Under the pieces are notes generated by a model, which had not been told where the DNA came from, made no database searches, and saw only the letters and a program-made list of their open reading frames with translations. The position numbers and the translations under genes are program-made. A stretch of 64,000 bases of DNA from positions 288,001-352,000 of the forward strand of contig OZ246423.1 in NCBI GenBank assembly GCA_965231215.1, in the 5' to 3' direction. Shown piece after piece: positions 18,367 through 61,879 of the stretch (position 1 is the first letter of the stretch; every line of letters begins with the position of its first letter). The stretch is from Candidatus Altimarinota bacterium (GTDB taxonomy: Bacteria; Patescibacteriota; Gracilibacteria; UBA4473).

Positions 18367-18450
18367 GTCTACCTACCCACATCAAAAAAGCCAAGCTAGA
18401 ACTAGCTTTTAATCGTTTCTGCGATCAACTGACTGTACTAGACCCTACTT
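18367..18450 (+). repeat. Degenerate copy of the dispersed intergenic repeat
   Basis: CTACCCAC..CAAAAAAGCCAA..TAGCTTT..CTGCGA..TGACTGTACTAGACCCTACTT resembles 25061-25147. Confidence 0.65.
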
Positions 18451-18998
18451 CACTGACCAAGCGCTTCCCAAATGACTTCTAAATCAGAACGCTTAACTTG
18501 TTTTTGCTTTTGTTCATGTAGGTTTCGAATAAAAGCACTTAAAATGCCCCACCAAATATCCATAAGTAGTTGTGTATCCAAAGACTTCAAAGCCCCTTCT
18601 TTCTGCCACGCTTTAATAAGCTCAACTGACTGTGCCGCCTCTTTTTTATAGAGTTTTCGCGCCTGAGCAGAAATTACCGGCCCTTTTTCTAACATCTGAA
18701 AAAACTGAAACTCTTCAAAATGTTTCAAATAATAACCAACCATAAACTCTGAAGATTTAAACACTACCGTTTTAGCTGGCTCAGAGTAGTCGAGGTTTTC
18801 ATGCATGGACGCGAAGGCTTGCTTCTTTTTTTCAAGATAAATAGTGTCAATCAATTCTTGTTTGGTTTTAAAATGCACAAACAGACTTCCAGAAGCTATT
18901 CCCACTTCTTTACAGATTTGGCTCGTGGAGGTTTTATGGATACCTTGAGCAACAAAGAGTTTTAAAGCCGCTTGGATTATTTTATCACGGGTTTTCAT
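18450..18998 (-). CDS. TetR/AcrR family regulator
   Basis: N-terminal HTH: IIQAALKLF...TSTSQICKEVGIASGSLFVHFKTKQEL. Confidence 0.92.
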   Translation of the reverse strand: MKTRDKIIQAALKLFVAQGIHKTSTSQICKEVGIASGSLFVHFKTKQELIDTIYLEKKKQAFASMHENLDYSEPAKTVVFKSSEFMVGYYLKHFEEFQFFQMLEKGPVISAQARKLYKKEAAQSVELIKAWQKEGALKSLDTQLLMDIWWGILSAFIRNLHEQKQKQVKRSDLEVIWEALGQ

Positions 18999-19972
18999 GG
19001 AGTTTTAGCACTTAAACTATTTTTGGATAAAAATTGACTCGCTCGCTCCACGATGTCATCAACAAACTCAGGCTTATAGTACAAATCAAAGTGCGTTGCA
19101 TTTTTGCAAATTAGCAGGTCTTTTTTGTCTGCTGGGATAGCGTCGTAAAACTCTTGAATCTTTTCCGTCGAATATCCCCCATCGGCATAGGCCATAAAAA
19201 AGGGTTTGTTTTTGTATTTTTTGATAAAATTAAAGGGATTGTACTTCCCAGTCATGATGTTACTGGCCCGATAAAAATTACCTTTATTTTTCCAACTGGG
19301 GCTCGCTCCGGGTTTATCACCGTAACCGTAGTACTGAGGCATATCAGCTTGCGTTGGCGTCGCCGGGATGTAAGTCATCCATTTTTTAAGCGGTACAATA
19401 GGAATATAAAAATAAATACCAAACTTGTGAAATAGGTTTATAAATGGATTAGAAATTCCCATCATAATCTGAGTTAAGAGTTTGCCACCAAAGGCTTTAG
19501 GATAATCAATGTGTGAGGTTAGGTATGGACTAATAGCCAGAACCGCTTTAACTTTCTCATTATCTGAACCTGCCGCCATGGCATGACCGGCTCCCATACA
19601 GATACCCGCACTGATGATTTTATCCGCATCAACCTCTGACAACGATGCTAGATACGCAAAAGCGTTTTTATTATCGGAAATAATAGAAAAAGGATCTTCC
19701 ATTTGCGGCACGCCTTCACTCCCACCAAACCCCTTTACATCAAAAGCGAGAGCCATATAGCCTTGTTCTGAAAATTTTTCGGCATAGAGTCCAGCCGTTT
19801 GCTCTTTCACGCCTGAGGCGGGGCGAGTCACCACTATCGCCGCTCGTTTTTCTCCCTTTTTATAATCCTTAGGGATAAATAGGTGTCCTTCTAGTTGGCA
19901 GCCGTCGCTGTCAAAGTAGATCGTATTTTTACCTGGTTTTAGTTTTTTGTTCATGATGTTTTTATGTGCCAT
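18995..19972 (-). CDS. Alpha/beta hydrolase
   Basis: SGVKEQTAGLYA, GFGGSEG, nucleophile elbow GICMG, HFDLY. Confidence 0.88.
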   Translation of the reverse strand: MAHKNIMNKKLKPGKNTIYFDSDGCQLEGHLFIPKDYKKGEKRAAIVVTRPASGVKEQTAGLYAEKFSEQGYMALAFDVKGFGGSEGVPQMEDPFSIISDNKNAFAYLASLSEVDADKIISAGICMGAGHAMAAGSDNEKVKAVLAISPYLTSHIDYPKAFGGKLLTQIMMGISNPFINLFHKFGIYFYIPIVPLKKWMTYIPATPTQADMPQYYGYGDKPGASPSWKNKGNFYRASNIMTGKYNPFNFIKKYKNKPFFMAYADGGYSTEKIQEFYDAIPADKKDLLICKNATHFDLYYKPEFVDDIVERASQFLSKNSLSAKTP

Positions 19973-19988
19973 GATTTAAATTTCAAAA

Positions 19989-20002
19989 AGTGAGTACTCA
20001 CT
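19989..20002. promoter_or_regulatory. Putative TetR operator AGTGAGTACTCACT
   Basis: Perfect 14-bp palindrome just upstream of the hydrolase-tetR operon. Confidence 0.65.
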
Positions 20003-20057
20003 CATTATTTATTAAAAACAAATATAAATCAAGGAAATTCATAAAAAGAGTTTTGCC

Positions 20058-20117
20058 TCCACCCACCTCCCTTATTCCAAAAGGGTTAATCAAAGACTAG
20101 CTTTCAAGCGTGGGGGG
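20058..20117 (+). repeat. Dispersed repeat part A, copy 1
   Basis: 60 bp identical to 28725-28784. Confidence 0.9.
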
Positions 20118-20123
20118 GAGAGA

Positions 20124-20906
20124 TTACTTTATGTTCGGGGAGATCAATTCAGGCTGAAAGTGATCGACATACAAAGCGTGTCCTTCATAAAAGAATCGGA
20201 GAACCTGATCGAGCCGAGCCCTCAAATGACGGGATAATTTTTCACACTCCCTCAAAAATTCATCGGTTTCATAACGCATTCGAGTTCTAGTACTTGCACC
20301 ATTCACACTCGATATATCCATCCATCCTGTTTGATGATAAAGACTTAGATTGGTAACGGCTCCACTTGGTTCTAAAACTCTCATAACAAGACGTTTTTGT
20401 CGGTGATGTAGTTCTTGGTCATCAAGGCTTGGGAGTTCAGTAAGAGCTTCTGATAAGTCATAGGGGTAAGTATGAATTTCTTTATACCCACCTTCAGGAG
20501 TCAAACCTAAGAGCGTAACCTCAAAAGAAGTTACTCCTGTTGGTTTTAGCAGAATTTTACTTGATTGCTCATCCTGAAAAGGATGGGCGGGTACACTAAC
20601 ACTTTCTCGCTTTTCTAGAGCTTTATCAATGTTGATTGGCTCTATGTGCATTAAAAACGGATCAATGTAAAAATTATTTTTTCTGTCTGAACAAACAATA
20701 GCATAGTGCAATATCCCCCCCTCTGTTACCGACCTCAAAAATTTTACCTTATAGCCTTCCGTTTTTAAAAGTTCTGATAACTGTTTACACTGTTGAACAC
20801 AGTTACCACCAAAATTTTCAGGGTAGATCATTCCCGAATTTACAAGAATTTTCCCAAAAGAATTATAGGGAGTAGTTTCTACAATTTGACTCAAGGCTTC
20901 TTTCAT
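20124..20906 (-). CDS. Hypothetical protein with an arylamine N-acetyltransferase/transglutaminase-like Cys-His-Asp triad
   Basis: FGGNCVQQ ... HYAIV ... FYIDPF spacing matches NAT-like catalytic motifs. Confidence 0.55.
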   Translation of the reverse strand: MKEALSQIVETTPYNSFGKILVNSGMIYPENFGGNCVQQCKQLSELLKTEGYKVKFLRSVTEGGILHYAIVCSDRKNNFYIDPFLMHIEPINIDKALEKRESVSVPAHPFQDEQSSKILLKPTGVTSFEVTLLGLTPEGGYKEIHTYPYDLSEALTELPSLDDQELHHRQKRLVMRVLEPSGAVTNLSLYHQTGWMDISSVNGASTRTRMRYETDEFLRECEKLSRHLRARLDQVLRFFYEGHALYVDHFQPELISPNIK

Positions 20907-20968
20907 TTTTTAATGCATATTAGAAATGTAAATAAAAATAGTCAAGGGTTTTCACTCTCATTTCCTCA

Positions 20969-21085
20969 TATCGAACCCTGGGCTTGGGTTCAAAGCCCAA
21001 CTCCAAAATATATTTTAAAAAACAGACTCAAGGTCTGTGTTTTTAAATATGGCTGGCTTGTGTGGATGAAGTTAGGAAGATTATT
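20969..21085 (+). repeat. Dispersed repeat part B, copy 1 (hairpins plus TGGCTG att-like end)
   Basis: Near-identical to 28810-28935; contains the AAAAAACAGAC-nnnnn-GTCTGTGTTTTT hairpin. Confidence 0.9.
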
Positions 21086-21113
21086 TTAGAGTCCAAACAA
21101 CATCTATTATTTC

Positions 21114-24100
21114 TTAGGAGCTTGAAATTACAGTAAAAGGAATTTGATATGTCTCTTGCAAATAAGACTCAGTTACTCCTAGCAATGACAAACAAGTATT
21201 TCCAATATTAGCTTTAGATATACCTGGTTGCACCACATAGATGTACATTTCAACATCTAGGTAATCTTCAGACTGTCTTTGCAATATTTGAGCAAGGTCA
21301 GTATCGCCAACTTCAAAGCCATTAACTCCAGTTGTCTCAGACCTGCGAATCATATGGTGGAAAATTTTTGGAACATTTGTTCTCCACTGAATACTTTTTT
21401 GGGCTTGCCCACAAACATTATAAAGATCGCCAACTCTATCTCCGGGAGAATCTCCAGATGAGAATTTGCAGTGGTAAAATTCAATCCGTAGCACATTATC
21501 GTCTTTTTTAATTGCTATGATATCCGCCATTTCTCCGGCTCTATCATCATCAAATATGATGTCATAGCTTTCTGACTTTAATTTCTCAATAACCTTAAAT
21601 TGAATAGATGTGGGATCTTTCTCATTTCCTTGAGATTCTTTTCTAATATTTACGCCAGTCCAATCCCAAGCAGATATTTTTTCTTGATTGTAAAGAGTGA
21701 CGTCTGCTCTTGGTTTAGCTAAAATACTTCCCTCCAACAATGATCCATCAGAAAATCTTATAACTGGTGGATTGTCATGAAAATAATCAACTAAATTTTG
21801 GCCTTGTGAATTAAAGAATATCTTTAAGGGTGGGCTACTTTCTTCTGTAAAACTTACAGTACTCATGTCTCCTTCTGGCGAAAGTTGTAAGGACATCGAA
21901 TAGGTAGACTCAAAATCTGTAGTAAAAACTTTGAACTTTATTGCTTCTGAACTTTTAGAACTTATTTCAATTCCCACTTCATCAATTGGTATTTTAGAAG
22001 TTCCGTGCTGAATCCATATTGCAGTTTGAGTGTCAGTATAAATGGATTCGTCCCATTCGATCGTTACCGGCTCACTTTCCGGAATAGACAATGCAGTTTC
22101 CGTAATTAGTGAGTTTTTTAGGAAATCATAAGCTTCTATACTTTCATCCAACAACTTTGCCCCTAAATGCTCACACCAAAGCTTAAAGTCTCTAATATTT
22201 GTCACTTGTCTTGACCAAATCCTGCCTTTATAAGAACAGCCTAAACTAGTTTTCTCGCCTGCCTCAAAGCCTAACCCGAATAAATTAGATTTTATCTTTG
22301 TACTAGTTTGGGGATCGCTAAGCCCCTTTTCAACATCAACCCCTGAGTACATTGTATATCGGATTGCTTTACCCCAATTAGATCTCAGGCCGATGTTTTT
22401 AAATATGATTCTTTTCAAATCGTGAAAAGCTCTAAAAATAGTTTCTCCTTCAACTATATGAGCTTCACCCGAAGAAAGTGCCTTAGCTACATTTTCATGG
22501 AGGCTGCCGTTGTTTGAGCTATTTATAAATAATAGATTTTTTTCTCTATCCCAATAAATCAAATATAAGTCCCACTCTAAATTTCTTATGTGTTTAAAGA
22601 ATCCCCATTCCACATATTTTTTGCTACCTTCAACTACAACTAATACATTCTCTCTTTCACTATGAGTGTATTTAATAATTTTCTTTTCTGAGGTTTTACC
22701 AAATATCTCAATAACTGCATCTTCATTAGACAGGTCAACATCACCACTGATTTTAAACACAACTGTACTCATTTTTGGCCTAATGTTTTGAAGGCCAATA
22801 GATTCATTTTCTGTATCGAAGCTTTGAATAAAATCATTTAATGAAATCTGTCGTTCAATTTCATTTTCACTCCAAACTTGGAGTATAAGATTCCAATCTG
22901 GGTTAGCAGAATATAGCTCTCTCAAAATCTTACTCGAATTAGGACTTGTTATATCAGCTATTACTTGTGCTTCTCCTAAATTTAAATCATGAGAATAACG
23001 AGTAAAACGACCAACAAACTGCAATGTAATCGGCAGACTTTTATGAATATCATGTATTGCAGCGATTTTAAGCTCAGGTAGATCAAAGCCCTCACCAAGC
23101 ATGTCTACACAGACTACAATTTTTGACTGATGCGACTTTAGCTGCTCAAATGCATAATTTTTTTCAGCTGGAGACAACTCGGAATGAATAATTACAGGAT
23201 TCAAATCCGAAGCTAGGTCTTGATATATTCGAAATACATCTCTTGAGCGAGGGATTGTTTTTGTACGTACCATCATTAAATGATCTAGATTCCTCTCATC
23301 TAAATCTCTTCTGAGAATCTCAGTAGATTTCTCTGCAATTGCTCTATCTACCTTGCTTTCGTCCCACTCTCGGATTCCGGTGAAATTTATCTTCTTAAAG
23401 TACTCATCTTCAAAAGCATCTTTTAATTTATAATTAAATATTGTTCTGCCATCAACATGCTCACCATCATTGCGGAATGGTGTTGCAGTAAATTGCATCA
23501 CAGGCTTATGTCTTTTGACGAAACCTTTTTTAATTTTATCCCAAGTTTTAGCCGTAACATGATGTGCTTCATCCACGAATAAATGTGTAAAGACGGTAGA
23601 TAGATGTTCAAGAATAGCCTCATCGCACCGACCTAAACTGCTTGGGGTTGCTATTACTATGTTTGAGTGTGAAACAATTTCGTTTATTTCAGAGAGCGAC
23701 TTAGGTATGTGTTCAATGACTCCAACTGAAGGTAGCATCGTTTGTTCATTAAAACCTTCTAGTCTGGATATAAATCCCAAGGATTTAAACTTCCGAAAAG
23801 TTTGTTCTCTAAGGGGAACTGAAGGAACAAGGATCAAAACTTTTTTACATTGATTCAGGAGTATTGATCCAATCATAGTCTCTGTTTTTCCTGTTCCAGT
23901 CGGCATGATTATATTTACAACTTCGGTAGAGCAGGTTAAGTACCCTAATATTGAGAACATTGCACCTCTTTGAGGACGCCTGAGTACTTTGTCATTTTCA
24001 TTTACCTTTTCACGAAATGGGTCAAAACAGTTTTTCCAACTAGAAATTATCTGCTCGAGGGGTGCTTCGGGGTTATCAAATAAGCCATCATAAATAGCAT

Positions 24101-24170
24101 TGCACTCAACTTTTCCAAGCTGAACTTTTTTACTTATTCCACTGAACCCCATGCTCGATTGATCGCTCAT
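21114..24170 (-). CDS. SF2 DEAD/DEAH (type III restriction Res-like) helicase with a probable C-terminal PD-(D/E)xK nuclease domain
   Basis: MPTGTGKT, DEAHH, FTATP, MLGEGFD, QFVGRFTR; C-terminal DDDRAGEMADII...EFYHCK. Confidence 0.85.
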   Translation of the reverse strand: MSDQSSMGFSGISKKVQLGKVECNAIYDGLFDNPEAPLEQIISSWKNCFDPFREKVNENDKVLRRPQRGAMFSILGYLTCSTEVVNIIMPTGTGKTETMIGSILLNQCKKVLILVPSVPLREQTFRKFKSLGFISRLEGFNEQTMLPSVGVIEHIPKSLSEINEIVSHSNIVIATPSSLGRCDEAILEHLSTVFTHLFVDEAHHVTAKTWDKIKKGFVKRHKPVMQFTATPFRNDGEHVDGRTIFNYKLKDAFEDEYFKKINFTGIREWDESKVDRAIAEKSTEILRRDLDERNLDHLMMVRTKTIPRSRDVFRIYQDLASDLNPVIIHSELSPAEKNYAFEQLKSHQSKIVVCVDMLGEGFDLPELKIAAIHDIHKSLPITLQFVGRFTRYSHDLNLGEAQVIADITSPNSSKILRELYSANPDWNLILQVWSENEIERQISLNDFIQSFDTENESIGLQNIRPKMSTVVFKISGDVDLSNEDAVIEIFGKTSEKKIIKYTHSERENVLVVVEGSKKYVEWGFFKHIRNLEWDLYLIYWDREKNLLFINSSNNGSLHENVAKALSSGEAHIVEGETIFRAFHDLKRIIFKNIGLRSNWGKAIRYTMYSGVDVEKGLSDPQTSTKIKSNLFGLGFEAGEKTSLGCSYKGRIWSRQVTNIRDFKLWCEHLGAKLLDESIEAYDFLKNSLITETALSIPESEPVTIEWDESIYTDTQTAIWIQHGTSKIPIDEVGIEISSKSSEAIKFKVFTTDFESTYSMSLQLSPEGDMSTVSFTEESSPPLKIFFNSQGQNLVDYFHDNPPVIRFSDGSLLEGSILAKPRADVTLYNQEKISAWDWTGVNIRKESQGNEKDPTSIQFKVIEKLKSESYDIIFDDDRAGEMADIIAIKKDDNVLRIEFYHCKFSSGDSPGDRVGDLYNVCGQAQKSIQWRTNVPKIFHHMIRRSETTGVNGFEVGDTDLAQILQRQSEDYLDVEMYIYVVQPGISKANIGNTCLSLLGVTESYLQETYQIPFTVISSS

Positions 24171-24176
24171 TTTCTT

Positions 24177-24405
24177 CTACAGAGTAGGCAACCATATTAA
24201 CCCTTGACCCTCTTTTCTCAAAATTGGTTTATCACATATCTTAAACATTTCTTCATCGTGGTCAGAATCACCAATCGCCCAACTCTCATGTTGAGGGTAA
24301 TTCGTTAGTAAATCAGTTACAATGGCTCTTTTCCCTTTCGTTGGACATATGTCTCCAGAAACAGAAATATCTGCCGTCAGGGTATTGGAGCAGAACTTGT
24401 TTCTA
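24177..24405 (-). pseudogene. 3' fragment of a HAD-family phosphatase
   Basis: Reads ...KGKRAIV...WAIGDSDHDEEMF...LPTL-TAG. No start codon and no DxD motif; cut at the TGGCTGGG site at 24406. Confidence 0.65.
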
Positions 24406-24441
24406 TGGCTGGGAACGATTGACTGTATTAGAACTTACTTC
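24406..24441 (+). repeat. att-like repeat TGGCTGGGAACGATTGACTGTATTAGAACTTACTTC
   Basis: Similar to 25112-25147 and 36654-36683; the first 8 nt match the tRNA-Gln 3' end at 61805-61812. Confidence 0.75.
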
Positions 24442-24473
24442 GTAAAAAATGATTTTGATGATACCATCCAAAG

Positions 24474-25046
24474 GTGAAAACAAACAAAGTGACTACCAAA
24501 TATTTTACTAACAGAGATGAATGGAGGGCCTGGCTTCAGGTCAATTTTGAAACCCAAGACGAAATTTGGCTTGAATACCCTCTAAAAAAAACCGGCAAAG
24601 CCAGAATCCTGTATAATGACGCTGTGGAAGAAGCCCTCTGTTTTGGTTGGATAGATAGCACAGTAAAGTCGTTGAATACTAACACTACTATTCAGCGTTT
24701 CTGTAAGAGGCGGAAAAACACTTCGTTTTCTCAACCAAATAAAGAGCGGCTAAAATTACTTTATATAATGAAGCTAATCCATCCATCTTTGATTCAAAAT
24801 ATTAAAGAAGTAATTTCAGAAAAATTTGTTTTTCCTGAAGATATTTTAGAAAAGCTAAAACTAGAAAAAATGGTGTGGGATAATTATCAATCTTTTTCAG
24901 AGCCCTATAAACGGATTAGGATCGCTTATATAAACGATGCAAGGAACAGACCGGAAGAATTTGAGAAGCGTTTAGCCAATTTTGCAAGCAAGACCAAACA
25001 CAATAAACTAATAAAAGGCTTTGGTGGGATCGATAAATACTATTAG
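24474..25046 (+). CDS. YdeI/OmpD-associated family protein
   Basis: WRAWL, AVEEALCFGWIDS, C-terminal YKRIRIAYI...KRL. Confidence 0.88.
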   Translation: MKTNKVTTKYFTNRDEWRAWLQVNFETQDEIWLEYPLKKTGKARILYNDAVEEALCFGWIDSTVKSLNTNTTIQRFCKRRKNTSFSQPNKERLKLLYIMKLIHPSLIQNIKEVISEKFVFPEDILEKLKLEKMVWDNYQSFSEPYKRIRIAYINDARNRPEEFEKRLANFASKTKHNKLIKGFGGIDKYY

Positions 25047-25060
25047 TTAAAAGGTTCTAC

Positions 25061-25147
25061 GTCTACCCACTATTAAAACAAAAAAGCCAATCCTAGATTA
25101 GCTTTCAAGGGTGGCTGCGAACGATTGACCGTATTAGAACCTATTTC
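25061..25147 (+). repeat. Dispersed repeat copy (CTACCCAC...TAGCTTTCAAG-GG-TGGCTGCGAACGATTGACCGTATTAGAAC)
   Basis: Links the part-A type sequence directly to the TGGCTG att-like sequence. Confidence 0.75.
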
Positions 25148-25225
25148 ACAAAAATAGACTAAACAAAGTTTTTGTGTTGAAAAATATTTACTGATTACTA
25201 TTTTGTTTCAGAATAATATTTTTTC

Positions 25226-28714: not shown

Positions 28715-28724
28715 AAGTTCTGAG

Positions 28725-28935
28725 TCCACCCACCTCCCTTATTCCAAAAGGGTTAATCAAAGACTAGCTTTCAAGCGTGGGGGGATTACTCGCTTCGCTC
28801 ATGACTTCGTATCGAACCCCGCCCTTCGGGCTTACGGGTTCGAAGCCCAACTCCAAAATATATTTAAAAAAACAGACCCAAGGTCTGTGTTTTTAAATAT
28901 GGCTGGCTTGTGTGGATGAAGTTAGGAAGATTATT
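28725..28935 (+). repeat. Contiguous copy of the dispersed repeat (part A + hairpin core + part B)
   Basis: Matches 20058-20117 and 20969-21085; TCGAACCC..GCCCTTCGGGC..GGGTTCGA hairpin. Confidence 0.9.
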
Positions 28936-29036
28936 ACTAACTTCAAGGCAGAATTAGCCTATAGTCCTTTGAATACACCTACTACAATCTCAATAGTGAG
29001 CTAGACAGCAAGGTCATGAGGATTGAATGAACGTAC

Positions 29037-29067
29037 AAAAAAGCCAGACCTTACAGCCTGGCTTTTA
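29037..29067. terminator. Putative intrinsic terminator AAAAGCCAG...CTGGCTTTT
   Basis: Inverted repeat flanked by A/T tracts downstream of 29098-30492(-). Confidence 0.55.
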
Positions 29068-52144: not shown

Positions 52145-52162
52145 TACATAATCCAGTTTCAA

Positions 52163-52912: not shown

Positions 52913-52978
52913 TTATTATGTCCCAGAGGAAGAAGAAGTGAGGCCTATCATGAGTCCATATTTTGTAATTCTCACAAT

Positions 52979-54274
52979 ATGGCTCAAGCAAAATCTACCT
53001 CAAACCAACTTAAAGTTTGCTACATTTTACCAAACTTACTCAATCCAGCTCCCTATAATCCGAGGAAATGGGATACTGGGGCTACCAAGCAACTGACAGA
53101 AAGTATACAACGTTTTGGCCTGATTGATCCCATTATTGTAAACGGAGCTAAAGACCGAAAGAATATTGTAATTGGTGGTCACTTCCGACTCAAAATTGCC
53201 AAAGATCTAGGCTATAAAGAAGTGCCAGTGGTGTATCTCAACATTCCTGATATCAAAAAAGAGCAGGAATTAAATCTACGTTTGAACCGAAATACAGGTG
53301 ACTGGGATTTTGAAATTCTCAAAGATTTCGATCTCGACTTACTGCTTGATGTAGGGTTTGATGATTCGGATCTATCAGCTATTTGGGACGAAGCTTTGGG
53401 AGTCGAAGATGATGCATTTAAAACTCGCGAAGAGCTAAAAAGCATAGAGGATCCAGAGTCTAAAGAAGGTGATGTATTTCAGCTCGGAAGCCATCGCCTG
53501 GTTTGTGGAGATTCTACCGACCCTAAAGTAGTGCAAAAACTTTTGGGCAATACCAAGATCAACATGATCTACTCTGATCCACCCTATAATATTGGATTTG
53601 ACTATGCTAAAGGCATTGGAACAGAAGGGAAATACCAGGGGAAAAAGACGAATGACAGTAAAAGCCAAGCTGAGTATCGTGCCTTTTTAGAAAACACTCT
53701 ACGAAATGGACTAAAGCATTGCACCCCTGATACTCATATTTTTTATTGGTGTGATCAAAATTATATCGGACTGTTGCAAGATCTTTATCAACATAACGGC
53801 ATCGATAACAAGAGGGTTTGTTTGTGGATCAAGAATAACCAAAACGCCACACCTCAAATTGCTTTCAATAAATGCTATGAGCCGTGCGTGTATGGGATCC
53901 GAGGCAAGCCCTTCTTGTCTCCTAAATCCTCTAACCTCACAGAGATTGCAAATCCAGAAATTGAAAACGGCAACCGCACCATTGATGACATTCTTGACCT
54001 ACTCGACATCTGGCTTGTTAAAAGACTCCCAACCAACGAATACCAACACGCCACCGAAAAACCAGTCGTTTTGCATGACCGCCCTTTAAGGCGATGCACC
54101 AAACCAGGCGACACGGTGCTTGATCTATTTGGAGGTTCAGGATCGACTCTAATCGCCTGCGAACAACTGGGCAGAAAAGCCTTTTTAGTCGAACACGAAC
54201 CTGCCTTTTGTGATCTCATCATCAAACGCTACCTAGCTCTTAACCCACAAAACCATGCCAAAAAAATCAATTAA
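52979..54274 (+). CDS. ParB-like N-domain plus N4/N6 DNA methyltransferase
   Basis: PAPYNPR...GGHFR; DPPY; HATEKP; DLFGGSGST. Confidence 0.9.
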   Translation: MAQAKSTSNQLKVCYILPNLLNPAPYNPRKWDTGATKQLTESIQRFGLIDPIIVNGAKDRKNIVIGGHFRLKIAKDLGYKEVPVVYLNIPDIKKEQELNLRLNRNTGDWDFEILKDFDLDLLLDVGFDDSDLSAIWDEALGVEDDAFKTREELKSIEDPESKEGDVFQLGSHRLVCGDSTDPKVVQKLLGNTKINMIYSDPPYNIGFDYAKGIGTEGKYQGKKTNDSKSQAEYRAFLENTLRNGLKHCTPDTHIFYWCDQNYIGLLQDLYQHNGIDNKRVCLWIKNNQNATPQIAFNKCYEPCVYGIRGKPFLSPKSSNLTEIANPEIENGNRTIDDILDLLDIWLVKRLPTNEYQHATEKPVVLHDRPLRRCTKPGDTVLDLFGGSGSTLIACEQLGRKAFLVEHEPAFCDLIIKRYLALNPQNHAKKIN

Positions 54275-55025
54275 TCTTGGAGATGTATTTCAACTTGGTG
54301 AACATCGACTTATTTGTGGAGATGCCACGAATCCAGAGCACGTCCAGGAACTCTTAGAAAATGACCGAGTGAAACTCATTCTGACTGATGTGCCGTATGG
54401 AGTAGCTTTAGTCGAGGGAAAGAAAGAATTTTCTAAGTCTAAGGTCAAGCATGAGCCTATTGCGAATGATCATTTGCAGTCCGATAATGATTTTAAGCAA
54501 TTCACTACAAACTGGCTTGATCCCGTTAAAGATAAACTCACCGACAAAAACACATTCTACATTTTCAACTCGGACAAGATGATGTTTCCGATGCGAGAAG
54601 CCTTGCTTGAAGCAGGGTTTAAGTTTTCGCAGTTACTAGTATGGGCAAAAACAGGAGCCGTTATTGGCAGGCTGGATTATTTACCTCAACACGAATTGAT
54701 TGCCTACGGCTGGCGTGGTCGTCACGAGTTTTTAAAATCCAAGGATAAATCCATTTTGGTGAGTCCAAAAACAAAGAAAAATACGCTTCATCCGACCATG
54801 AAGCCTGTATCAATTCTGAGAAAACTGATTCTCAATAGCTCTCGTAGAGAAGATATCGTTTACGACCCATTTGGGGGTAGTGGCTCAACCCTGATGGCTT
54901 GCGAGCAAACTCGCAGGAAGTGTTTGATGATCGAAATCGAACCAATGTATTGCCAAGTGATTATTGATCGCTGGGAAAAACTTACAGGCAAAAAAGCCGT
55001 ACTTCTTAACTCTAAAAAATCATGA
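54255..55025 (+). CDS. Second DNA methyltransferase
   Basis: TDVPYG, HPTMKP, DPFGGSGST. Confidence 0.9.
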   Translation: MPKKSINLGDVFQLGEHRLICGDATNPEHVQELLENDRVKLILTDVPYGVALVEGKKEFSKSKVKHEPIANDHLQSDNDFKQFTTNWLDPVKDKLTDKNTFYIFNSDKMMFPMREALLEAGFKFSQLLVWAKTGAVIGRLDYLPQHELIAYGWRGRHEFLKSKDKSILVSPKTKKNTLHPTMKPVSILRKLILNSSRREDIVYDPFGGSGSTLMACEQTRRKCLMIEIEPMYCQVIIDRWEKLTGKKAVLLNSKKS

Positions 55026-55435
55026 CTATTAACGAGCGACAACAGCAACAAAAAGAGGTTCTCTGTGAGCAACTGAGAAAAACACCGATTGTACAGGTCA
55101 CCTGTGAGAAAATCGGTATTGGGCGAGCCACGTACTACCGCTGGAGAAAAGACGACAAGGTTTTTGCAAAGAAGGCCGATGAGGCTTTAAGTGAAGGGGT
55201 TCATCTGATGAACGACATGGCTGAATCGCAACTGTTGTCAGCTATAAAATCTCAGAATTTAACCGCCATTATTTTCTGGCTAAAACATCGCCACAAGTCT
55301 TATACACAGAAGTTTGAAGTTACGACTCGCCTGGAAAACCCTGAACTAACCGAAGAACAGCAGGCTATGGTACAAAAAGCCCTAACTTTAGGGTCTTTAG
55401 CCCCCTCTAAAAATTCCCCTAAAAAGAAAAAATGA
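55022..55435 (+). CDS. HTH protein, probable terminase small subunit
   Basis: CEKIGIGRATYYRW, AIIFWLK; overlaps the terL start. Confidence 0.7.
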   Translation: MTINERQQQQKEVLCEQLRKTPIVQVTCEKIGIGRATYYRWRKDDKVFAKKADEALSEGVHLMNDMAESQLLSAIKSQNLTAIIFWLKHRHKSYTQKFEVTTRLENPELTEEQQAMVQKALTLGSLAPSKNSPKKKK

Positions 55436-56928
55436 CTGAAATCATCCCAGCTATCGAAGAAAACATGGTACATCAAGTCCTTACCGACCAGCAAGTTAGA
55501 CAGGAGGTCACCAGTCAAAGCCATTATTGGTTTTTTCACACTTACTTTCACCACTATATCACTCACAAAACCGCTGATTTTCAGCGAGATATTTTTAGGC
55601 TAACCGAAGATGAAAAAGTAAAAAACATAGTCATCATTGCTTTTCGAGGATCGGGTAAATCTACGATTGTAAATCTTTCGTATCCTCTGTGGGCTATTCT
55701 GGGTGCACAGAAGAAAAAATTTGTATTACTGGTTGGGCAAACCCAGCACCAAGCGCGACAACACCTCAAAAATATTAAGCGGGAAATGGAATCTAACGAT
55801 TTGCTCCGCAAAGATCTCGGGCCATTCAAAGAAGACGATGAGTGGAGTACGTCTTCACTACTCATTCCAAAACACGATGCTCGAATTATGGCCGTTTCTA
55901 TGGAGCAAAGTGTGCGAGGGATTCGTCATAACCAGTACCGACCAGACCTGATTATTTGTGACGACATTGAAGATCTATCCTCGGTCAAAACACTTGAAGG
56001 CAGAAACAAAACCTTCGATTGGCTTACCAGCGAAGTAATCCCCGCTGGCGATCAAAGTACTCGACTGGTAATGATTGGGAATCTTCTTCATGAAGACTCA
56101 GTCATTATGCGGATGAAAGAAAAAATCAGAAAACGAGAGATGAGTGGCAAATACAAAGCTTACCCAGTAGTTCGTAATAAAAAGTCTCTGTGGCCTGGAA
56201 AGTATAAGAATATGCAGGCCATAAAAACTGAAGAAAAAAGAGTTGGAAACGATATCGCTTGGCAAAGAGAATTTATGCTGCGTATTGTTCCTGATGATGG
56301 ACAAGTAGTACATAAAGACTGGATTCAGTACTATGACGAATTACCCAAGCCTAATGGTGCTGATCCTGATCAAGGGGGCATCTCTTTCCGCTACTGTGCC
56401 ATTGGGGTCGATCTAGCTATTTCTGCCAAACAAACAGCGGATTATACGGCTTTTGTGCCTGCCATGGTTTACTTAATTGGTTTTGATGCCTACGTTTATA
56501 TTTTACCTGAAATAGTAAATCGCCGGATGGATTTTAGTACTTCTCAGGAAACCCTCAAAGCCTTAGCTCAAACGATTCATGACAGTCCTAAAAGCGTGAA
56601 AATGTACATCGAGGGAGTTGGGTATCAACAAGCCTTTATACAGGAAGTAAAAAATCAGGGCTATAAGACGGTAGATGTACAACCCCGAGGTGATAAACGG
56701 TCTCGATTGTCAGCTTCAAGTCACTATATAAAAACAGGGAAGGTACTGTTTCCAAAACAAGGTTGTGAGCGACTGATTGAGCAGATGACGGGGTTTGGAG
56801 TAGAAAAGCACGATGATATTGTCGATGCTTTTACCACCATTTTAAATGAAGTTATGAAAGATCCCCCTCGTCGGCATTTCATGGCTTTCTTTGGTGGTGA
56901 TGGAGACGATTCAATTCACTGGTTTTAG
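55432..56928 (+). CDS. Phage terminase large subunit
   Basis: AFRGSGKST, IICDDIED, GVDLA, HDDIVDA. Confidence 0.88.
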   Translation: MTEIIPAIEENMVHQVLTDQQVRQEVTSQSHYWFFHTYFHHYITHKTADFQRDIFRLTEDEKVKNIVIIAFRGSGKSTIVNLSYPLWAILGAQKKKFVLLVGQTQHQARQHLKNIKREMESNDLLRKDLGPFKEDDEWSTSSLLIPKHDARIMAVSMEQSVRGIRHNQYRPDLIICDDIEDLSSVKTLEGRNKTFDWLTSEVIPAGDQSTRLVMIGNLLHEDSVIMRMKEKIRKREMSGKYKAYPVVRNKKSLWPGKYKNMQAIKTEEKRVGNDIAWQREFMLRIVPDDGQVVHKDWIQYYDELPKPNGADPDQGGISFRYCAIGVDLAISAKQTADYTAFVPAMVYLIGFDAYVYILPEIVNRRMDFSTSQETLKALAQTIHDSPKSVKMYIEGVGYQQAFIQEVKNQGYKTVDVQPRGDKRSRLSASSHYIKTGKVLFPKQGCERLIEQMTGFGVEKHDDIVDAFTTILNEVMKDPPRRHFMAFFGGDGDDSIHWF

Positions 56929-56976
56929 ATAAAAAAGACCTAGACTATAAGTTTTATCCCGGCATCAATTAGGTTG

Positions 56977-58260
56977 ATGAAAGAAAACGAGGCGCTACAA
57001 GAACCACTCAAATACTGTTTATACGCTCGAAAGTCGAGTGAAGCAGACGAAAGGCAAGCCCTGTCTATTGATTCTCAGGTCAGTGAGATGCTCAAGCTGG
57101 CAAAAAACGAAGGCATAGAAATTGTTGAAACCCTTCGAGAGAGTAAATCAGCTAAAAGTTCGGGGCAAAGGGTGGTTTATAACCAATTATTGAGTGGTAT
57201 TCGAGAACAACGCTTCAACGCTATTCTTACCTGGGCACCAGACCGACTTAGCCGTAATGCAGGAGATCTTGGATCAATTGTGGATCTAATGGATCAAAAA
57301 ATGCTGGTGCAAATTCGTACCCACGGACAAACCTTCACTGATAATCCCAATGAGAAGTTCTTGCTCATGATCCTCTGTTCTCAAGCCAAACTGGAGAACG
57401 ATAACCGAGCTAAAAACGTCAAACGAGGCCTCCGTAGAAAATGCGAAATGGGAGTCAGACCTGGGTGTGTACCGCTCGGGTATGAACTCATTCGAGGAAA
57501 GACGTTCCGAGATGCCAGTACCATCGAAGTTGACCCTATTCGTGGACCGCTCATACAAAAAATGTTCCGCTGGGTCGCAGAGGACGGTTTAAGCGGTCGT
57601 CAAGTATGGGAGTACATGAAGGAAGAGGGATTTAAGACTAAAAACGGTAAAACCGTAACGCTCAGCATGATTTTTCGAATTTTGGCCGATCCGTTTTACT
57701 ACGGATCTTTTGAATACCCCAAGGGTAGTGGTAATTGGTACGAAGGCACACACAAAAAACTGATCGATAAAGAAACCTACGACATCGTGCGAAGCAAAAT
57801 GAAAGTTTCCCCAAAAGGAAAATGGGGGCGAAAAGATTTTTTCTTCAACAAAGTTTTCAAATGTGGGTCTTGTGGTTCAGGGATATCGGGCGAACAAAAA
57901 CTAAACCGACATGGAAAACACTATGTGTACTACCGTTGTAACCGTTTTAGTGGAAAGAACAGCTGTAAAGAGAAGTATGTTCGGGAAGAAACAATCATTG
58001 AGTCTCTAGCAGACATTTGCGTGACGGTTCAGGAGCAAAATCAAAGATTAGAGAAGAAATTGAGAGGAGAGGTGGAACGGTTCAATGATATGCAGAGAAT
58101 GATGAGTGGAGACAATGCCAAGCTGATGACTACGAAAGACTATGTGCAGTATGTACTAAAAAATGGAAACGGTAGTGAGAAAGGTAAGATCATAAAAGAA
58201 CTTTCTGAAAATCTATTACTCCAAAATGGAACCGTAGTTATGGGTAAATTTAGGGCATAG
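56977..58260 (+). CDS. Large serine recombinase (integrase)
   Basis: YARKSS, DRLSRN, recombinase domain, Zn ribbon CGSCG...YYRC...C. Confidence 0.93.
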   Translation: MKENEALQEPLKYCLYARKSSEADERQALSIDSQVSEMLKLAKNEGIEIVETLRESKSAKSSGQRVVYNQLLSGIREQRFNAILTWAPDRLSRNAGDLGSIVDLMDQKMLVQIRTHGQTFTDNPNEKFLLMILCSQAKLENDNRAKNVKRGLRRKCEMGVRPGCVPLGYELIRGKTFRDASTIEVDPIRGPLIQKMFRWVAEDGLSGRQVWEYMKEEGFKTKNGKTVTLSMIFRILADPFYYGSFEYPKGSGNWYEGTHKKLIDKETYDIVRSKMKVSPKGKWGRKDFFFNKVFKCGSCGSGISGEQKLNRHGKHYVYYRCNRFSGKNSCKEKYVREETIIESLADICVTVQEQNQRLEKKLRGEVERFNDMQRMMSGDNAKLMTTKDYVQYVLKNGNGSEKGKIIKELSENLLLQNGTVVMGKFRA

Positions 58261-58305
58261 TAAAAAATGGTTTTTCTGCTATAAATAGATAAAGATCCAT
58301 ATTGA

Positions 58306-59331
58306 ATGTCCAGTAATAAAATTTCACCTGAATTTTCAAAATTTCTCTTAGATTTAAGAGAAATTTTGAACCGCGTAGATGCAGAATCAGAAGAAAGTGC
58401 ATTGCCAGTGTCAGAAAAAGAGGCGTTCAAAGAAAATCTGCTAGATGAATATTTAGGACAATTTATAGAAAGTATCTATTTTAGAGGGGAAATATGGCTT
58501 TTTAAAGGAAAAGAAGGATTACTCAGGGATCTTAAGTCAAAAGTCGCTGAATTTTTTAAAACAGACGTTGAAAATATTTATATTGTAGGGTCTGCTAAAA
58601 CTGGCTTCAGCATAACAAAAACCAAAGATTTCAGAGAAGGCATAGAAGGCGTGAAAAATTCGGATATTGATATTGCAATTGTAGACACTAAATGCTTCGA
58701 AAGTTACCATCAGCAGATTGGGAGCTTTCATTCTGATTATATGGAACGTCCTATGCTGTCAGGTAGAGACAATGAGAAACTACAAAAAAGCAAAAACTAC
58801 TTAACAGAGGGCTGGATAAGACCAGATCTTCTTTTTCCAAAAGAACTCCAACAAGAGTGGATGAATTTCTTTGATTCTATATCGGATGGAAGGCTTAATT
58901 CTGATCTTAACTATAGAATCAATGGAGGTTTGTACCTTAACCAATCATGTTTTGCACGATTTTGTAGAAAGAGTCTGAAGCAAAAACTAGAAGATCTAAT
59001 AAAACTTGCTAAACAAGTAGAAAATGACCCACTAAGTAATGACTTAACACCTCTAGAACCAGCATTTAAAGCATTTTTGTATTTAATGTGTCCTTTTGAT
59101 CGGGGAGATGAAAAATTAGTACATAATCTTGTCGAAATGATGGATATAACTCTTGATGAGTTTGAACTCTTGAAAGAGAAATTCATCGCTGATGGACTGC
59201 TAAAAGCTATTGGAAATCAGATTTACTTTGAGGATGAACGTATTGGTAAAGAAGCTGTTAATTATCTCATAAATCAAGAAAAAACTGATCCTGCTCAAAT
59301 AATTGAACTTTCTAATATTTACGAACAATGA
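58306..59331 (+). CDS. Pol-beta superfamily nucleotidyltransferase-like protein with a C-terminal winged-helix-like region
   Basis: IVGSAKTGFS...SDIDIAIVD (GS, DxD). Confidence 0.7.
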   Translation: MSSNKISPEFSKFLLDLREILNRVDAESEESALPVSEKEAFKENLLDEYLGQFIESIYFRGEIWLFKGKEGLLRDLKSKVAEFFKTDVENIYIVGSAKTGFSITKTKDFREGIEGVKNSDIDIAIVDTKCFESYHQQIGSFHSDYMERPMLSGRDNEKLQKSKNYLTEGWIRPDLLFPKELQQEWMNFFDSISDGRLNSDLNYRINGGLYLNQSCFARFCRKSLKQKLEDLIKLAKQVENDPLSNDLTPLEPAFKAFLYLMCPFDRGDEKLVHNLVEMMDITLDEFELLKEKFIADGLLKAIGNQIYFEDERIGKEAVNYLINQEKTDPAQIIELSNIYEQ

Positions 59332-61667
59332 GTACTAAAAAGAAACTGCTGAAAAAAATGGCTGAAACTTATTTCTTAGAAAGAAATAGTAAAATTCGTG
59401 AATTCTTTGAAAAGGAACTTCAAGCAAATATTGAGGCCTTAAAAAATGAAAAATTTAGAACAAATGAAGAACTTATAGAAAAATTAGAGGAGCTTGCTGA
59501 GTTTGCTTACCCAATACCAGAGAAGGTTGTAGAAATAGTAGAGAAAATTTCCTCAGCTAAACCAATTGCTTTGAAAGACAAGCCTACAGAGTTTGGCTTA
59601 CTACCCGGAAAAACATGGGACGATGTCTTAGAGCAATGTGTGAGTTTACTAAGGCAGGTTAGATATCTCGAAACGGAAGCAGTTATTGAGCTACTTGCTA
59701 AATTTTCGGAAAACGAAAACAAAGAACTTAGTAATAAAGCATTAGAGGCCATCGAGGAACTATGTAAGTATGACTTGCACGTGTTAAACAACGTAGGTGT
59801 CCAACCGCAAAAGAGGTTTATTGAAGCGATCAATAAATGGGCTATTAAGAAAAAAATTAGACACATTGATGTAATTGTTAAGGGTTTAACCGCTTTGCTA
59901 AGCCCAGATTTTGGAGGAGTTGAATGGCAAGATTTTAAAACTGTGACCTTCAGACATGGTGGCTTAAACGCCACCAAATCAGTTGTAAGCAATCGAGAAA
60001 CAGCTTTAGAAATAGCTAAGAATGTTTTTTTAGAGGCAGATGACCCAAAAGTTCAAATATCATTACTCAGTGTATTCAATTCTGCCTGTCGTGACTCGTT
60101 CTATACCGAGGAATTAAGGCCTGTGGTTGTGGCAAATGTCAAAGATGTTCTAAGCTTTTTTAACGAAACCGTTTTGCCGTCAAACCCAGCACTAGAAGTA
60201 TTATCAGAGCTAGAAGATCGTATTGCTTGGCTAGAAAATGGCTTTAAAACTGAAAAACTAAAAGAGTTGGCTAGATTTTGGTGTCTTCTAGAGCAAAATG
60301 AAGAGTACAAAATATATCGAATTTTAGTCGGCTATGAACGAAGATTTAGGCGATTAGAAATGGGATGGGAGGAGTGTCAAAAATACAGAAATGACCACAT
60401 TGCACAATATGTTGAGAGTATAAATCAAAAAAACGAAGAAGAGTGGATTAATCGAATTATCAATATTGCCAAAACAGAAGAAAACTTAAACGACAGTGGT
60501 AAATTCCAGTACTTTCAACAACTTCTAATTCAAATTGGCGAGAAAAAATCAGGTCTAGGATTCCTATTACTTGAGATAAATGAGCCGTTCCTAGAAAGAT
60601 TCAAAGCCTATATTATTTTGGGTTTAGATAAGTCCGAAAAAGAAAAAATTAGGCTACTAATTCAGGAGTGGATAAACAAAGGAGAAAATCTACAGATAAT
60701 TGCATTTGCCATACGGTTTATGGAGAAAATAGATACTAATATGCTTGAAGCCTTGTTTGAGAAGATTAAATCAAAGCGAGGGAAAGATAAAAAAAGAAAG
60801 TTATTTGCAGAATTTCTATACTCTCTTGGATTTACGAATATTGAGAACAAAGACCTGTTCATAAAAACTCTACGAGAACTTACAAAATATGATCTAACTC
60901 ATTGGACTAATTGGTTTTTTGGAGGTAAGGAGGGCGAAAACATATTTGAACATTTTGACGAAAATGATTGGGAAGTTGTTATTGAAAACTTACTTGGTAC
61001 AAGCGATATTCAATATCATGATGAATATGTTTTAAAATATTTACTTAGATTTGACCCAGTTAAATTTGTTAGTTTCTTTGAAAGAAGAATCAAAAAAGAA
61101 GAAAAATTTGATGGGCTTTATTATCGCTATTCATCTCTACCTTTTAGTTTGCATAATTTGCTATCAGAGTTGCATGACTACGAAGATGAGATTACCGAAG
61201 AGGTTTGGAAATGGTTTGATAAAAAGTATGGATGGAAAGCGGCAATATTCTTAAAAGCATTGTTCCCCGGTTTTTCTTCAAAAATGGATCAAAAAATAAA
61301 TGAAATTATTGATTCTAAAGATAAAAAAGCATGGAAAAAATATATTCAGCCTATTTTTCAGTGGTATCGTGGAAACTCTCTAGAGCGAATAATCAAAAGA
61401 ACGATTAACTCTTTCGACAAAGATCAAGAAATGTGGGACACCTGCATGATATATCTTTCAAACCCTGGAATGGTTTCAGGTACAACAGGCGAACCAATAA
61501 TGGCCAATGCCTATAGAGCAAAGAAGACCAGAGTTGAAAAATGGGAGTTAGACAATGACAAAATCAAGGAATTTGTTGAGGGATACAAAAAAATGCTTGA
61601 TAGAGATATTAAAAGAGAAGAACAACGACACTTAGAAGAAATGGAAAAGCTTAAAAGACGACCTTAG
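59328..61667 (+). CDS. Large alpha-helical (HEAT/ARM-like) hypothetical protein
   Basis: 779 aa, predominantly helical pattern; ATGA overlap with the NTase gene. Confidence 0.75.
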   Translation: MSTKKKLLKKMAETYFLERNSKIREFFEKELQANIEALKNEKFRTNEELIEKLEELAEFAYPIPEKVVEIVEKISSAKPIALKDKPTEFGLLPGKTWDDVLEQCVSLLRQVRYLETEAVIELLAKFSENENKELSNKALEAIEELCKYDLHVLNNVGVQPQKRFIEAINKWAIKKKIRHIDVIVKGLTALLSPDFGGVEWQDFKTVTFRHGGLNATKSVVSNRETALEIAKNVFLEADDPKVQISLLSVFNSACRDSFYTEELRPVVVANVKDVLSFFNETVLPSNPALEVLSELEDRIAWLENGFKTEKLKELARFWCLLEQNEEYKIYRILVGYERRFRRLEMGWEECQKYRNDHIAQYVESINQKNEEEWINRIINIAKTEENLNDSGKFQYFQQLLIQIGEKKSGLGFLLLEINEPFLERFKAYIILGLDKSEKEKIRLLIQEWINKGENLQIIAFAIRFMEKIDTNMLEALFEKIKSKRGKDKKRKLFAEFLYSLGFTNIENKDLFIKTLRELTKYDLTHWTNWFFGGKEGENIFEHFDENDWEVVIENLLGTSDIQYHDEYVLKYLLRFDPVKFVSFFERRIKKEEKFDGLYYRYSSLPFSLHNLLSELHDYEDEITEEVWKWFDKKYGWKAAIFLKALFPGFSSKMDQKINEIIDSKDKKAWKKYIQPIFQWYRGNSLERIIKRTINSFDKDQEMWDTCMIYLSNPGMVSGTTGEPIMANAYRAKKTRVEKWELDNDKIKEFVEGYKKMLDRDIKREEQRHLEEMEKLKRRP

Positions 61668-61804
61668 TGCTATATCTCCATAGGCGCATCGGTCACAATA
61701 GATCAACCTAATAGAATCAATCCACAAAAGGTACATTAAGATTCCCTAAAACCCCAAAAGTTCCCAACCTACGTGGGACACTATTGGGTATTACTGTACT
61801 AAGT

Positions 61805-61879
61805 TGGCTGGGGTGGAGGGATTCGAACCCCCGAATGGCGGAACCAAAATCCGCTGCCTTACCACTTGGCGACACCCCA
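61805..61879 (-). tRNA. tRNA-Gln (TTG)
   Basis: TGGGGTG...GCGGA-TT-TTG-GT-TCCGC...GGTTCGAATCC...CACCCCAGCCA, 75 nt with encoded CCA. Confidence 0.97.

Follow-up and report, generated by a model that had tools for sequence, protein, structure and literature searches.

The locus described in this work lies in a window of 64,000 nucleotides (288-352 kb of the genome) from a Gracilibacteria-class bacterium of the candidate phyla radiation (CPR). The tiny genome of this bacterium is a single contig of 1,326,059 bp and is denoted G000; its relatives (G) and individual loci (L) are denoted in the same way. The window holds an island of about 44 kb that spans from the end of nrdG (17730) to the tRNA-Gln gene (61805). 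Starting from nrdG, the island consists of a site at 17746, a RibD_C gene, a site at 18416, TetR and hydrolase genes, a pseudo-tRNA unit (B1) with a 260-aa open reading frame (ORF), a site at 21050, a helicase gene and a HAD remnant, a site at 24406, an OmdA gene, a site at 25112, an AAA+ protein gene, a second pseudo-tRNA unit (B2), a site at 28900, three genes including one with a Macro domain, a site at 36654, a kinase-like gene and the DRT3a/b pair, a site at 42628, and a 19.2-kb element with a recombinase that reaches the tRNA. The GC content of the blocks ranges from 0.31 to 0.42 and that of the genome is 0.399. We consider it probable that the region between nrdG and tRNA-Gln is a tandem array of integrative elements that entered successively at the 3' end of the tRNA-Gln gene. 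CPR bacteria have few recognised mobile elements, and little is known about their ways of acquiring and exchanging accessory and anti-phage genes. The features are listed in Table 1, and positions are those of the window unless the genome is named.

The tRNA-Gln(UUG) gene is intact, lies at the border of the island, and is the sole tRNA-Gln gene in the genome according to ARAGORN. Its 3' end is ...CCCCAGCCA on the minus strand. The plus strand therefore reads TGGCTGGGG, the reverse complement of the tRNA end, as had been noticed from the sequence alone. The core TGGCTG is the reverse complement of the terminal CAGCCA and is common to several families of flanking arms. TGGCTG occurs 36 times on both strands of the window, where 22.7 +/- 4.9 copies are expected, and none of 100 shuffles reached 36. 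Ten junctions (17746, 18416, 20111, 21050, 24406, 25112, 28778, 28900, 36654, and 42628) carry the core in addition to the tRNA at 61805. All ten cores are co-oriented, and they are 6-7 nt long or degenerate. The co-oriented motifs pointed out earlier are indeed present on the plus strand at 21050, 24406, 25112, 28900, 36654, and 61805.

The sequence-only reading had treated these motifs as one related series. The repeats are real, but they belong to two families. The A-type, TGGCTGCGAACGATTGACCGTATTAGAACC, is present at 24406, 25112, and 36654 with 74-81% identity over 54 nt, and a copy of 61% is present at 18416. The B-type is a 100-nt repeat (20986-21085 and 28836-28935, 97% identical) that contains TGGCTGGCTTGTG. 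A 72-nt repeat stands before each B-type copy (20046-20117 and 28713-28784, 94% identical). The whole genome was scanned for the A motif with up to 7 substitutions in 31 nt and for the B motif with up to 8 in 36. The A motif was found at these three places only and the B motif at these two only, all on the plus strand, so the repeats are confined to the island and are not scattered over the genome. A BLAST search of the site at 25079-25165 against its own genome gave nine matches, six of them inside the island and three with E > 1. Sites that had been missed earlier are a degenerate A copy (17746-17783), degenerate cores at 20111 and 28778, and the attP-like junction at 42628.

Alignment of the junctions revealed a common order of left arm, core, and right arm. 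The left arm is about 60-70 nt long and ends in a hairpin that forms a terminator on the minus strand. It stands before the cores at 18416 and 25112, has a variant form at 20111 and 28778, and is found at the left border of the arrays in G004 and G003, so that it is present in six of the nine aligned junctions. The A-type right arm follows the cores at 24406, 25112, 36654, and 18416 and that of the G004 border, and is decayed at 17746. The motif at 24406 cuts the remnant ORF at 24177-24434 (minus strand), in agreement with the earlier observation that one motif truncates a gene; this ORF matches only the C-terminal end of HAD profiles, weakly (E 0.035-0.05, under the cut-off). An exact scan of a metagenome collection for the A-type arm gave two matches, both in unrelated coding DNA without the TGGCTG core.

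The borders of an element are defined most directly next to the tRNA. This element (E8) carries genes for an HTH_17 helix-turn-helix (HTH) protein, a 354-aa protein, MauE, HlyD/cation-diffusion-facilitator (CDF)/AcrB efflux, a ParB-methylase, a second methylase, a terS-like HTH protein, terL, the large serine recombinase, and two further genes. No phage structural genes other than the terS-like HTH gene and terL were recognised in E8 with Pfam. The homology between E8 and G024, which belongs to another genus, starts exactly at the 42628 core (TGGCTGGCTACTCGGGTCT in G024) and runs to the tRNA. This homology is found in the blocks 42628-44067, 53039-58597, and 59134-61880, and the middle cargo differs. 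The full HlyD, CDF, and AcrB efflux set of E8 lies at 45896-52144, where G024 has other genes.

The arm on the left side of the 42628 core (42485-42627) resembles the tRNA-proximal arm of the G019 element, with 78% identity over 125 nt. It can also be aligned with the arms next to tRNA-Gln in seven genomes (G000, G019, G024, G005, G044, G022, and G010) and with the arm at tRNA-Ser(GGA) of G000. The sequence on the right side, ACTACTCGGGTCT..., has counterparts in the distal element arms of G024, G019, G044, and G023. This order of arm, core, and arm would be that of an attP, as expected at the boundary of two tandem elements. The arm of E8 that abuts tRNA-Gln is predicted to give the tRNA a new trailer and terminator.

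The recombinase of E8 has the domains PF00239 Resolvase (2.2e-21), PF07508 Recombinase (9.8e-15), and PF13408 Zn_ribbon_recom (1.4e-7), and its N-terminal domain matches the TP901-1 integrase (3bvp, E 5e-6). Orthologues with 55-88% identity are present in seven related genomes. Among nine orthologue loci, two (from two other genera) have tRNA-Gln downstream in the same geometry and one has tRNA-Ser(GGA). The remaining six have no tRNA, and four of these six reach a contig end. The excisionase-type HTH gene lies at the distal end of E8, far from the tRNA. No tyrosine recombinase is present in the window; matches to PF00589 lie at 818 kb and 883 kb of the genome only. The genome has these two tyrosine recombinases and two serine recombinases.

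The occupancy of the tRNA-Gln end varies across genera. A survey of 30 loci of the family covered 31 tRNA-Gln-type ends. A pseudo-tRNA unit directly adjoins 11 of them (across 10 genera), the arm of a recombinase element adjoins 6, a recombinase ORF 2, and other sequences 12, and many of the surveyed genes lie at contig ends. Two more arm-abutted cases (G019 and G005) are known beyond the six of the survey. At one locus (L070 of G021), a TGGCTGG copy 3' of tRNA-Gln is separated from the genuine end of the tRNA by just 50 nt of a distal arm (CATCATGAGTCTCCTCAC...), which looks like the solo scar of an almost wholly lost element.

One block of the island is shared with a relative. The complete genome G004 belongs to the same genus; its nrdD gene is 72% identical and its core genes are about 72% identical to those of G000. 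The two genomes share the 2.3-kb block 17777-20128, of which 17777-20052 is 99.25% identical (2276 nt) and 20085-20128 is 95% identical (44 nt). This block carries the RibD_C, TetR, and hydrolase genes without a recombinase. Outside G004, the query 17740-21120 matched with its terminator-core part only. In G004, the block has an A-type site on one side and, on the other, a pseudo-tRNA unit immediately next to tRNA-Gln. Public sample data were taken as Logan contigs, which drop rare forms, from three runs (X1-X3) of one study that is the likely source sample. The shared block has a depth of 532 and its flanks have 290-305, and the G000-type and G004-type junctions are both present in one sample, which indicates that two species co-occur and that each has the block. 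The block appears to have been exchanged recently between these two species. A second same-genus species that matches G004 was observed at similar depth in the sample (17001-21000, runs X1-X3).

The left border of the shared block follows ...GTATTAGAA and the right border follows ...GAGATTAC, and both are T-loop-like positions of pseudo-tRNA sequence. Pseudo-tRNA units begin with the last 19 nt of the neighbouring tRNA, split at ATT^CGAA by an insert that runs from AC to AT; CGAACCC, one or two hairpins, and a terminator follow. In G011, G050, and G048, these 19 nt co-vary with the adjacent tRNA. The same insert family occurs at tRNA-Arg(TCG), tRNA-Trp, and tRNA-Ser(TGA) and 3' of the tRNA-Ser(GGA) island in G000, and the unit at tRNA-Ala(GGC) has the same layout with a different insert. 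The insert in the T-loop is either about 20-110 nt long or a gene cassette of 0.85-1 kb; the counterpart of B1 has a 62-nt insert in G004 in place of the 850-nt cassette, and the insert in G003 is approximately 1 kb. One insert stem exhibits a compensatory change from G-C to C-G between copies. In B2, the insert is followed by CGAACCCC, two hairpins, and a terminator. B2 is 82% identical over 73 nt to the unit 3' of tRNA-Arg(TCG) (genome 153440-153513). At genome 153435-154052, this tRNA is followed by a small ORF, then by 8 nt that repeat the tRNA 3' end, and by the pseudo-tRNA unit, of which the insert is nearly the same as that in the window unit at 28782-28830.

A functional T-loop follows a pattern of purine-57 and A58. 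The plus-strand hairpin GGGTTCNNNNCCC was considered as a T-arm and rejected, since its loops lack this pattern; the minus-strand loops fit the anticodon-loop pattern. An Rfam search of the window at gathering thresholds gave tRNA only, and a permissive Rfam search of the pseudo-tRNA units in G003 and in the window at 28600-29100 gave only chance matches to microRNA and small RNA families.

Serial island accretion behind tRNA-Gln had been proposed from the sequence alone, and it gains support from the homology of E8 between 42628 and the tRNA, the arm family that abuts tRNA-Gln in seven genomes, the geometry of the recombinase orthologues, and the position of the shared block beside tRNA-Gln in G004. 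The array is also consistent with the island-confined and co-oriented repeats, the GC content that varies by block, and the absence of tyrosine recombinases from the window. The habit is genome-wide as well. For six of the 35 tRNA genes, the last 20 nt recur (with at most 2 mismatches) outside tRNA genes, and tRNA-Ser(GGA) has a 5.5-kb island (genome 265354-271100, L087) with perfect 26-nt tRNA-end repeats and the same arm family but no recombinase. L087 carries two HSP20 genes, a PsiE-like gene, and an ABC transporter as cargo, and the island is closely followed by a pseudo-tRNA-Ser unit.

According to the proposed mechanism, an element would enter as a circle with a P arm, TGGCTG, and a P' arm, and would recombine through the short core with the tRNA end, which consists of trailer, TGGCTG, and tRNA body. 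The tRNA would stay whole and gain the P arm as its new trailer and terminator, and earlier elements would be shifted away from the tRNA and then decay. Serial insertion of this kind would leave neighbour junctions that read P arm, TGGCTG, and P' arm, as observed at 42628, 25112, and 18416. The youngest element would be E8, which keeps the large serine recombinase and the excisionase-type gene and may still be mobile at present. The older elements would have kept their cargo, but the enzyme and part of their arms and cores would be gone. The reaction would be that of a serine recombinase with its crossover inside TGGCTG, and the order of arrival would run from the nrdG side towards the tRNA.

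Table 1. Features of the island between nrdG and tRNA-Gln, in window positions (S, junction or site; B, pseudo-tRNA unit; E, block or element).
Feature	Positions	Strand	Content and basis
Degenerate A site S0	17746-17783	+	junction alignment
RibD_C gene	17786-18394	minus	
Junction S1	18383-18469	+	degenerate A copy, core 18416
TetR gene	18450-18998	minus	
Alpha/beta hydrolase gene	18995-19972	minus	
Pseudo-tRNA unit B1	20046-21049	+	same frame as B2; 850-nt cassette at the T-loop position
B1 cassette ORF	20124-20906	minus	260 aa
Junction S3 and block E3	21050-24405	+	TGGCTGG and arm; repeat alignment
E3 helicase gene	21114-24170	minus	ResIII/DEAD, 1018 aa
E3 HAD-like remnant	24177-24434	minus	truncated
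Junction S4 and block E4	24406-25048	+	core and A-type right arm; repeat and junction alignment
E4 OmdA/YdeI-like gene	24474-25046		
Junction S5	25049-25165	+	most complete A-type site: left arm with terminator hairpin, TGGCTG, right arm
Block E5	25112-28712	+	AAA+ protein, 1162 aa, 25226-28714; weak DolB-like match
Pseudo-tRNA unit B2	28713-28899	+	trailer-like arm, degenerate core TGGGGGGATT, 21-nt insert between AC and AT
Block E6	28900-36589	+	464-aa gene (minus), 1461-aa gene, Macro-domain gene 35042-36265
Junction S8	36590-36707	+	arm fragment (ATTACCTTCTACATAGGTATGTGGG), cores 36632 and 36654, then A-type arm
Element E7	36654-42627	+	bounded by cores 36654 and 42628; no recombinase; GC 0.314
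E7 kinase-like gene	36718-37818	minus	two small ORFs also in E7
DRT3a	38962-40290		PADLOC Drt3a 1.4e-107
DRT3b	40301-42301		PADLOC Drt3b 1.2e-210
Junction S9, attP-like	42485-42680	+	arm of E7 (Lc family), TGGCTG (42628), E8 distal arm (ACTACTCGGGTCT...)
Element E8	42628-61804	+	19.2 kb; Pfam; DNA homology to G024
Excisionase-type HTH gene	42692-42910	minus	72 aa; PF12728 HTH_17 E 1.1e-8, 35.6 bits against a cut-off of 27
Large serine recombinase	56974-58260	+	428 aa; reads toward the tRNA, 3.5 kb away
tRNA-proximal arm of E8 (Lc family)	61640-61804	+	aligns with tRNA-Gln-abutting arms
tRNA-Gln(UUG)	61805-61879	minus	ARAGORN; Rfam tRNA 61.6 bits

Several observations weigh against accretion at the tRNA end. 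The exact identity of the motifs to the tRNA is just 6-7 nt, a shortness that had been conceded from the outset, and the cores at 18416 (TTTCTG) and at 20111 and 28778 (TGGGGGG) are degenerate. The 3'-terminal 45 nt of the tRNA were locally aligned to the listed plus-strand motif sites with shuffled controls, and no site scored above the range of the controls, so the sites cannot be called tRNA fragments by similarity. The sole score above the shuffles is a minus-strand match near 28885 inside B2 (33, with shuffle maxima of 23-28). The shared block has its borders at ATTA and not at TGGCTG, with a shift of 17-31 nt rightwards from the cores, which implies that at least that exchange proceeded without a crossover in TGGCTG. 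The shared block is also the farthest from the tRNA in G000 yet looks recent, a misfit with a strict order in which the oldest block is the farthest. Elements from the same arm family in G022, in G045, and at tRNA-Ser of G000 have tRNA fragments of 26 nt on their flanks. These fragments extend into the T-arm and thus point to a crossover there. The pseudo-tRNA units with their following cores are 94-97% duplicates, so part of the array may stem from duplication. The empty site, with nrdG next to tRNA-Gln, was not found in any relative: genus mates, among them the rearranged G004, lack the locus in their assemblies or are rearranged, and the contig of G003 breaks off within nrdG. Comparison of G058 and G057 with G019 by blastn or tblastn gave no shared flank. 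Finally, we know of no canonical serine integrase that uses attR as its target.

The most probable rival is a working cassette system, comparable to the staphylococcal cassette chromosome (SCC) or to integrons, in which the recombinase at 56974 or the one at 813 kb of the genome would reshuffle enzyme-less blocks in trans through live TGGCTG sites. We regard it as unlikely. Complete junctions of arm, core, and arm persist at 25112 and 42628, and the tRNA-Ser(GGA) element is intact in its arms and has perfect repeats without a recombinase of its own. However, the arms of the A-type blocks are unrelated to those of E8, and several cores are degenerate. A recombinase-less block has moved recently between co-occurring species, but the exchanged block ends elsewhere than at TGGCTG. 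In run X3, one contig connects 28724 back to 20058 through a 60-nt repeat, a step of 8667 nt. Such a joint is the signature of an 8.67-kb circle or a tandem duplication, but it may be an artefact of the assembly graph as it runs through the repeat. The Logan contigs of the three runs contain no other joint and none between TGGCTG sites, although contigs cannot show rare excision. The cargo DNA at 21086-41085 has no match in 300 other genomes of the class, apart from the junction repeats (A-site, trailer arm, and pseudo-tRNA units) and one stretch of 178 nt at 69%.

The island may instead have been acquired as one or a few large pieces and then shaped by segmental duplication and ordinary recombination, which we find improbable. 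The pseudo-tRNA unit, the core, and the 29-nt arm do occur twice with 94-97% identity at a distance of 7.85-8.67 kb, and the back-joint of the X3 contig falls in this duplicated repeat. However, the A-type copies are only 61-81% identical and are thus not recent duplicates. The arm families recur at tRNA-Gln of other genera with different cargo, the GC content differs from block to block, and the junction at 42628 unites arms that are found separately at two element ends elsewhere. A third alternative, in which the motifs would be the tails of coding frames or intergenic repeats of the terminator type with no link to mobility, is hardly credible. The left arms do hold terminator hairpins on the minus strand and the frames after TGG-CTG are open for 16-23 codons, but no motif ends an ORF, in-frame stops lie upstream, the first 12 codons have seven substitutions of which two are synonymous, the remaining 1.26 Mb of the genome contains no copy of the motifs, and Rfam has no matching family for them.

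The sequence-only reading had likened the translated motifs to the protein tails of tRNA-targeting recombinases. This part did not hold for the window, where W-L is merely TGG-CTG, the antisense of the tRNA end. In two other genomes, G016 and G012, the frames of recombinases from a second clade pass through the core into antisense tRNA-Gln and end with ...YPLWLGRRDSNPRM... or ...PNGWG, and such ends are probably the tails to which the motifs had been likened. The variant left arm (20053-20124 and 28720-28776) weakly resembles the C-terminus of the G016 recombinase (E 0.5), with 12 matching residues out of 19 and both hits in the copies of a single repeat, which is a hint only that the left arm may be the relic of a recombinase gene end. 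The second large serine recombinase of G000 (genome approximately 812156-813900, with a frame of at least 541 aa) has a frame that crosses the tRNA-Lys 3' end in antisense, and its last residues are ...YGGWGEDRTR. Its geometry is that of the G016 and G012 enzymes at tRNA-Gln.

The T-loop-split pseudo-tRNA module is the unexplained and more interesting part of the locus. The 26-nt tRNA fragments and the shared block that ends at ATTA point to at least two classes of breakpoints, located at the CCA end and at the T-loop. The putative second class is located at the T-loop-like ATT(A/C) of the pseudo-tRNA copies and has no assignable enzyme. Rather than dead scars, the units may be a conserved landing-pad module in which the T-loop takes up or exchanges cassettes by a second, T-loop-directed route of recombination. 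This idea is tentative and rather doubtful, and it draws on the 11 of 31 occupied ends, the co-variation with the adjacent tRNA, the insert family at other tRNAs, the compensatory stem change, the insert sizes, and the ATTA borders.

The older blocks (17746-42627) carry no recombinase, and their cargo is mostly of defence type (DRT3, the helicase, the AAA+ protein, and the Macro domain). A tblastn search showed that these blocks are mostly without a recognisable integrase fragment, with one weak exception. The ORF in the B1 cassette has one homologue (75% identity) and no family in Pfam, PADLOC, or NCBIfam. It was not adopted as a recombinase and is treated as cargo; an Atlas lead for it is arylamine N-acetyltransferase, found in 12% of the members of one cluster. 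Block E6 starts with junction S7, which consists of TGGCTGG and a 29-nt arm identical to the arm at 21050. The arm fragment of S8 also precedes the TGGCTGGGG site in G023 (L067). The DRT3 defence pair in the low-GC (0.31), recombinase-less E7 is complete (38962-42301), and a non-coding stretch of 180 nt with a terminator lies between this pair and the arm of E7. The AAA+ gene contains a run of 12 lysine codons at 26141-26194 (KKKKKKKKKKKK), which was skipped as a repeat in read mapping. Genetic code 25 was rejected for this genome, as long genes have no in-frame TGA and TGA terminates 58 of 552 long frames.

The findings in this work were compared with known systems. The E8 recombinase has the same set of domains and a similar N-terminal catalytic domain as TP901-1 (PDB 3bvp), and a small HTH gene lies at the far end of the element in the same manner; the target predicted here is the 3' end of a tRNA. 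A core of 6-7 nt is compatible with a serine-recombinase reaction of attP with attB, which would require a 2-nt crossover and little identity, and the 26-nt repeats around related elements would allow more than one position for the crossover.

SCC composite islands of staphylococci use the large serine recombinases CcrAB or CcrC and a fixed target at the 3' end of a gene (rlmH), where elements are stacked in tandem. They also contain recombinase-less pseudo-elements bounded by short direct repeats. The array resembles them in this mode of working, but its target is a tRNA and not rlmH. The array also resembles an integron in its row of small cargo units, with recombination sites between them and one recombinase beside them. 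However, the window has no IntI-type tyrosine recombinase, its genes lie on both strands, and its sites are direct junctions of arm, core, and arm and not attC-type imperfect palindromes.

Islands of the Islander/TIGER type in tRNA and tmRNA genes are described as splitting and restoring their target, so that a regenerated gene and a displaced fragment mark the ends, with catalysis by tyrosine integrases (PMC4383910). In that description, the displaced fragments are usually long enough for detection by similarity, whereas the repeats here are 6-7 nt or degenerate. The closest known systems are tycheposon-type tRNA islands. The preprint on the tycheposons of Prochlorococcus describes elements that integrate at tRNA genes, are flanked by partial tRNAs, and stack at the tRNA gene with the older elements pushed inward and decaying (bioRxiv 10.1101/2020.12.28.424599). 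Some of them resemble phage-inducible chromosomal islands with terS and xis, and 27 of 937 use a large serine recombinase (bioRxiv 10.1101/2020.12.28.424599). The likeness is the stacking at a tRNA gene, and closer cases could be present in the supplements of that preprint. The present array differs by its CPR host, a large serine recombinase as its only integrase, a core that consists of the last 6-7 nt of the tRNA, mostly small blocks without a recognisable integrase fragment (one weak), and T-loop-split pseudo-tRNA copies. Full-text searches of the literature, supplements aside, gave no paper on such arrays in CPR bacteria among the titles listed, which is no proof of absence.

This locus shows a concrete route of gene gain in a CPR bacterium, where one tRNA end docks serine-recombinase elements and small enzyme-less blocks of cargo. 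It also yields the att sequences for a candidate tRNA-directed large serine recombinase, and it places the widely recurring T-loop-split tRNA module where its role is testable. In comparison with the known systems, the building of islands at a tRNA end is already established, and the unusual features of this array are the type of its enzyme and its broken tRNA copies.

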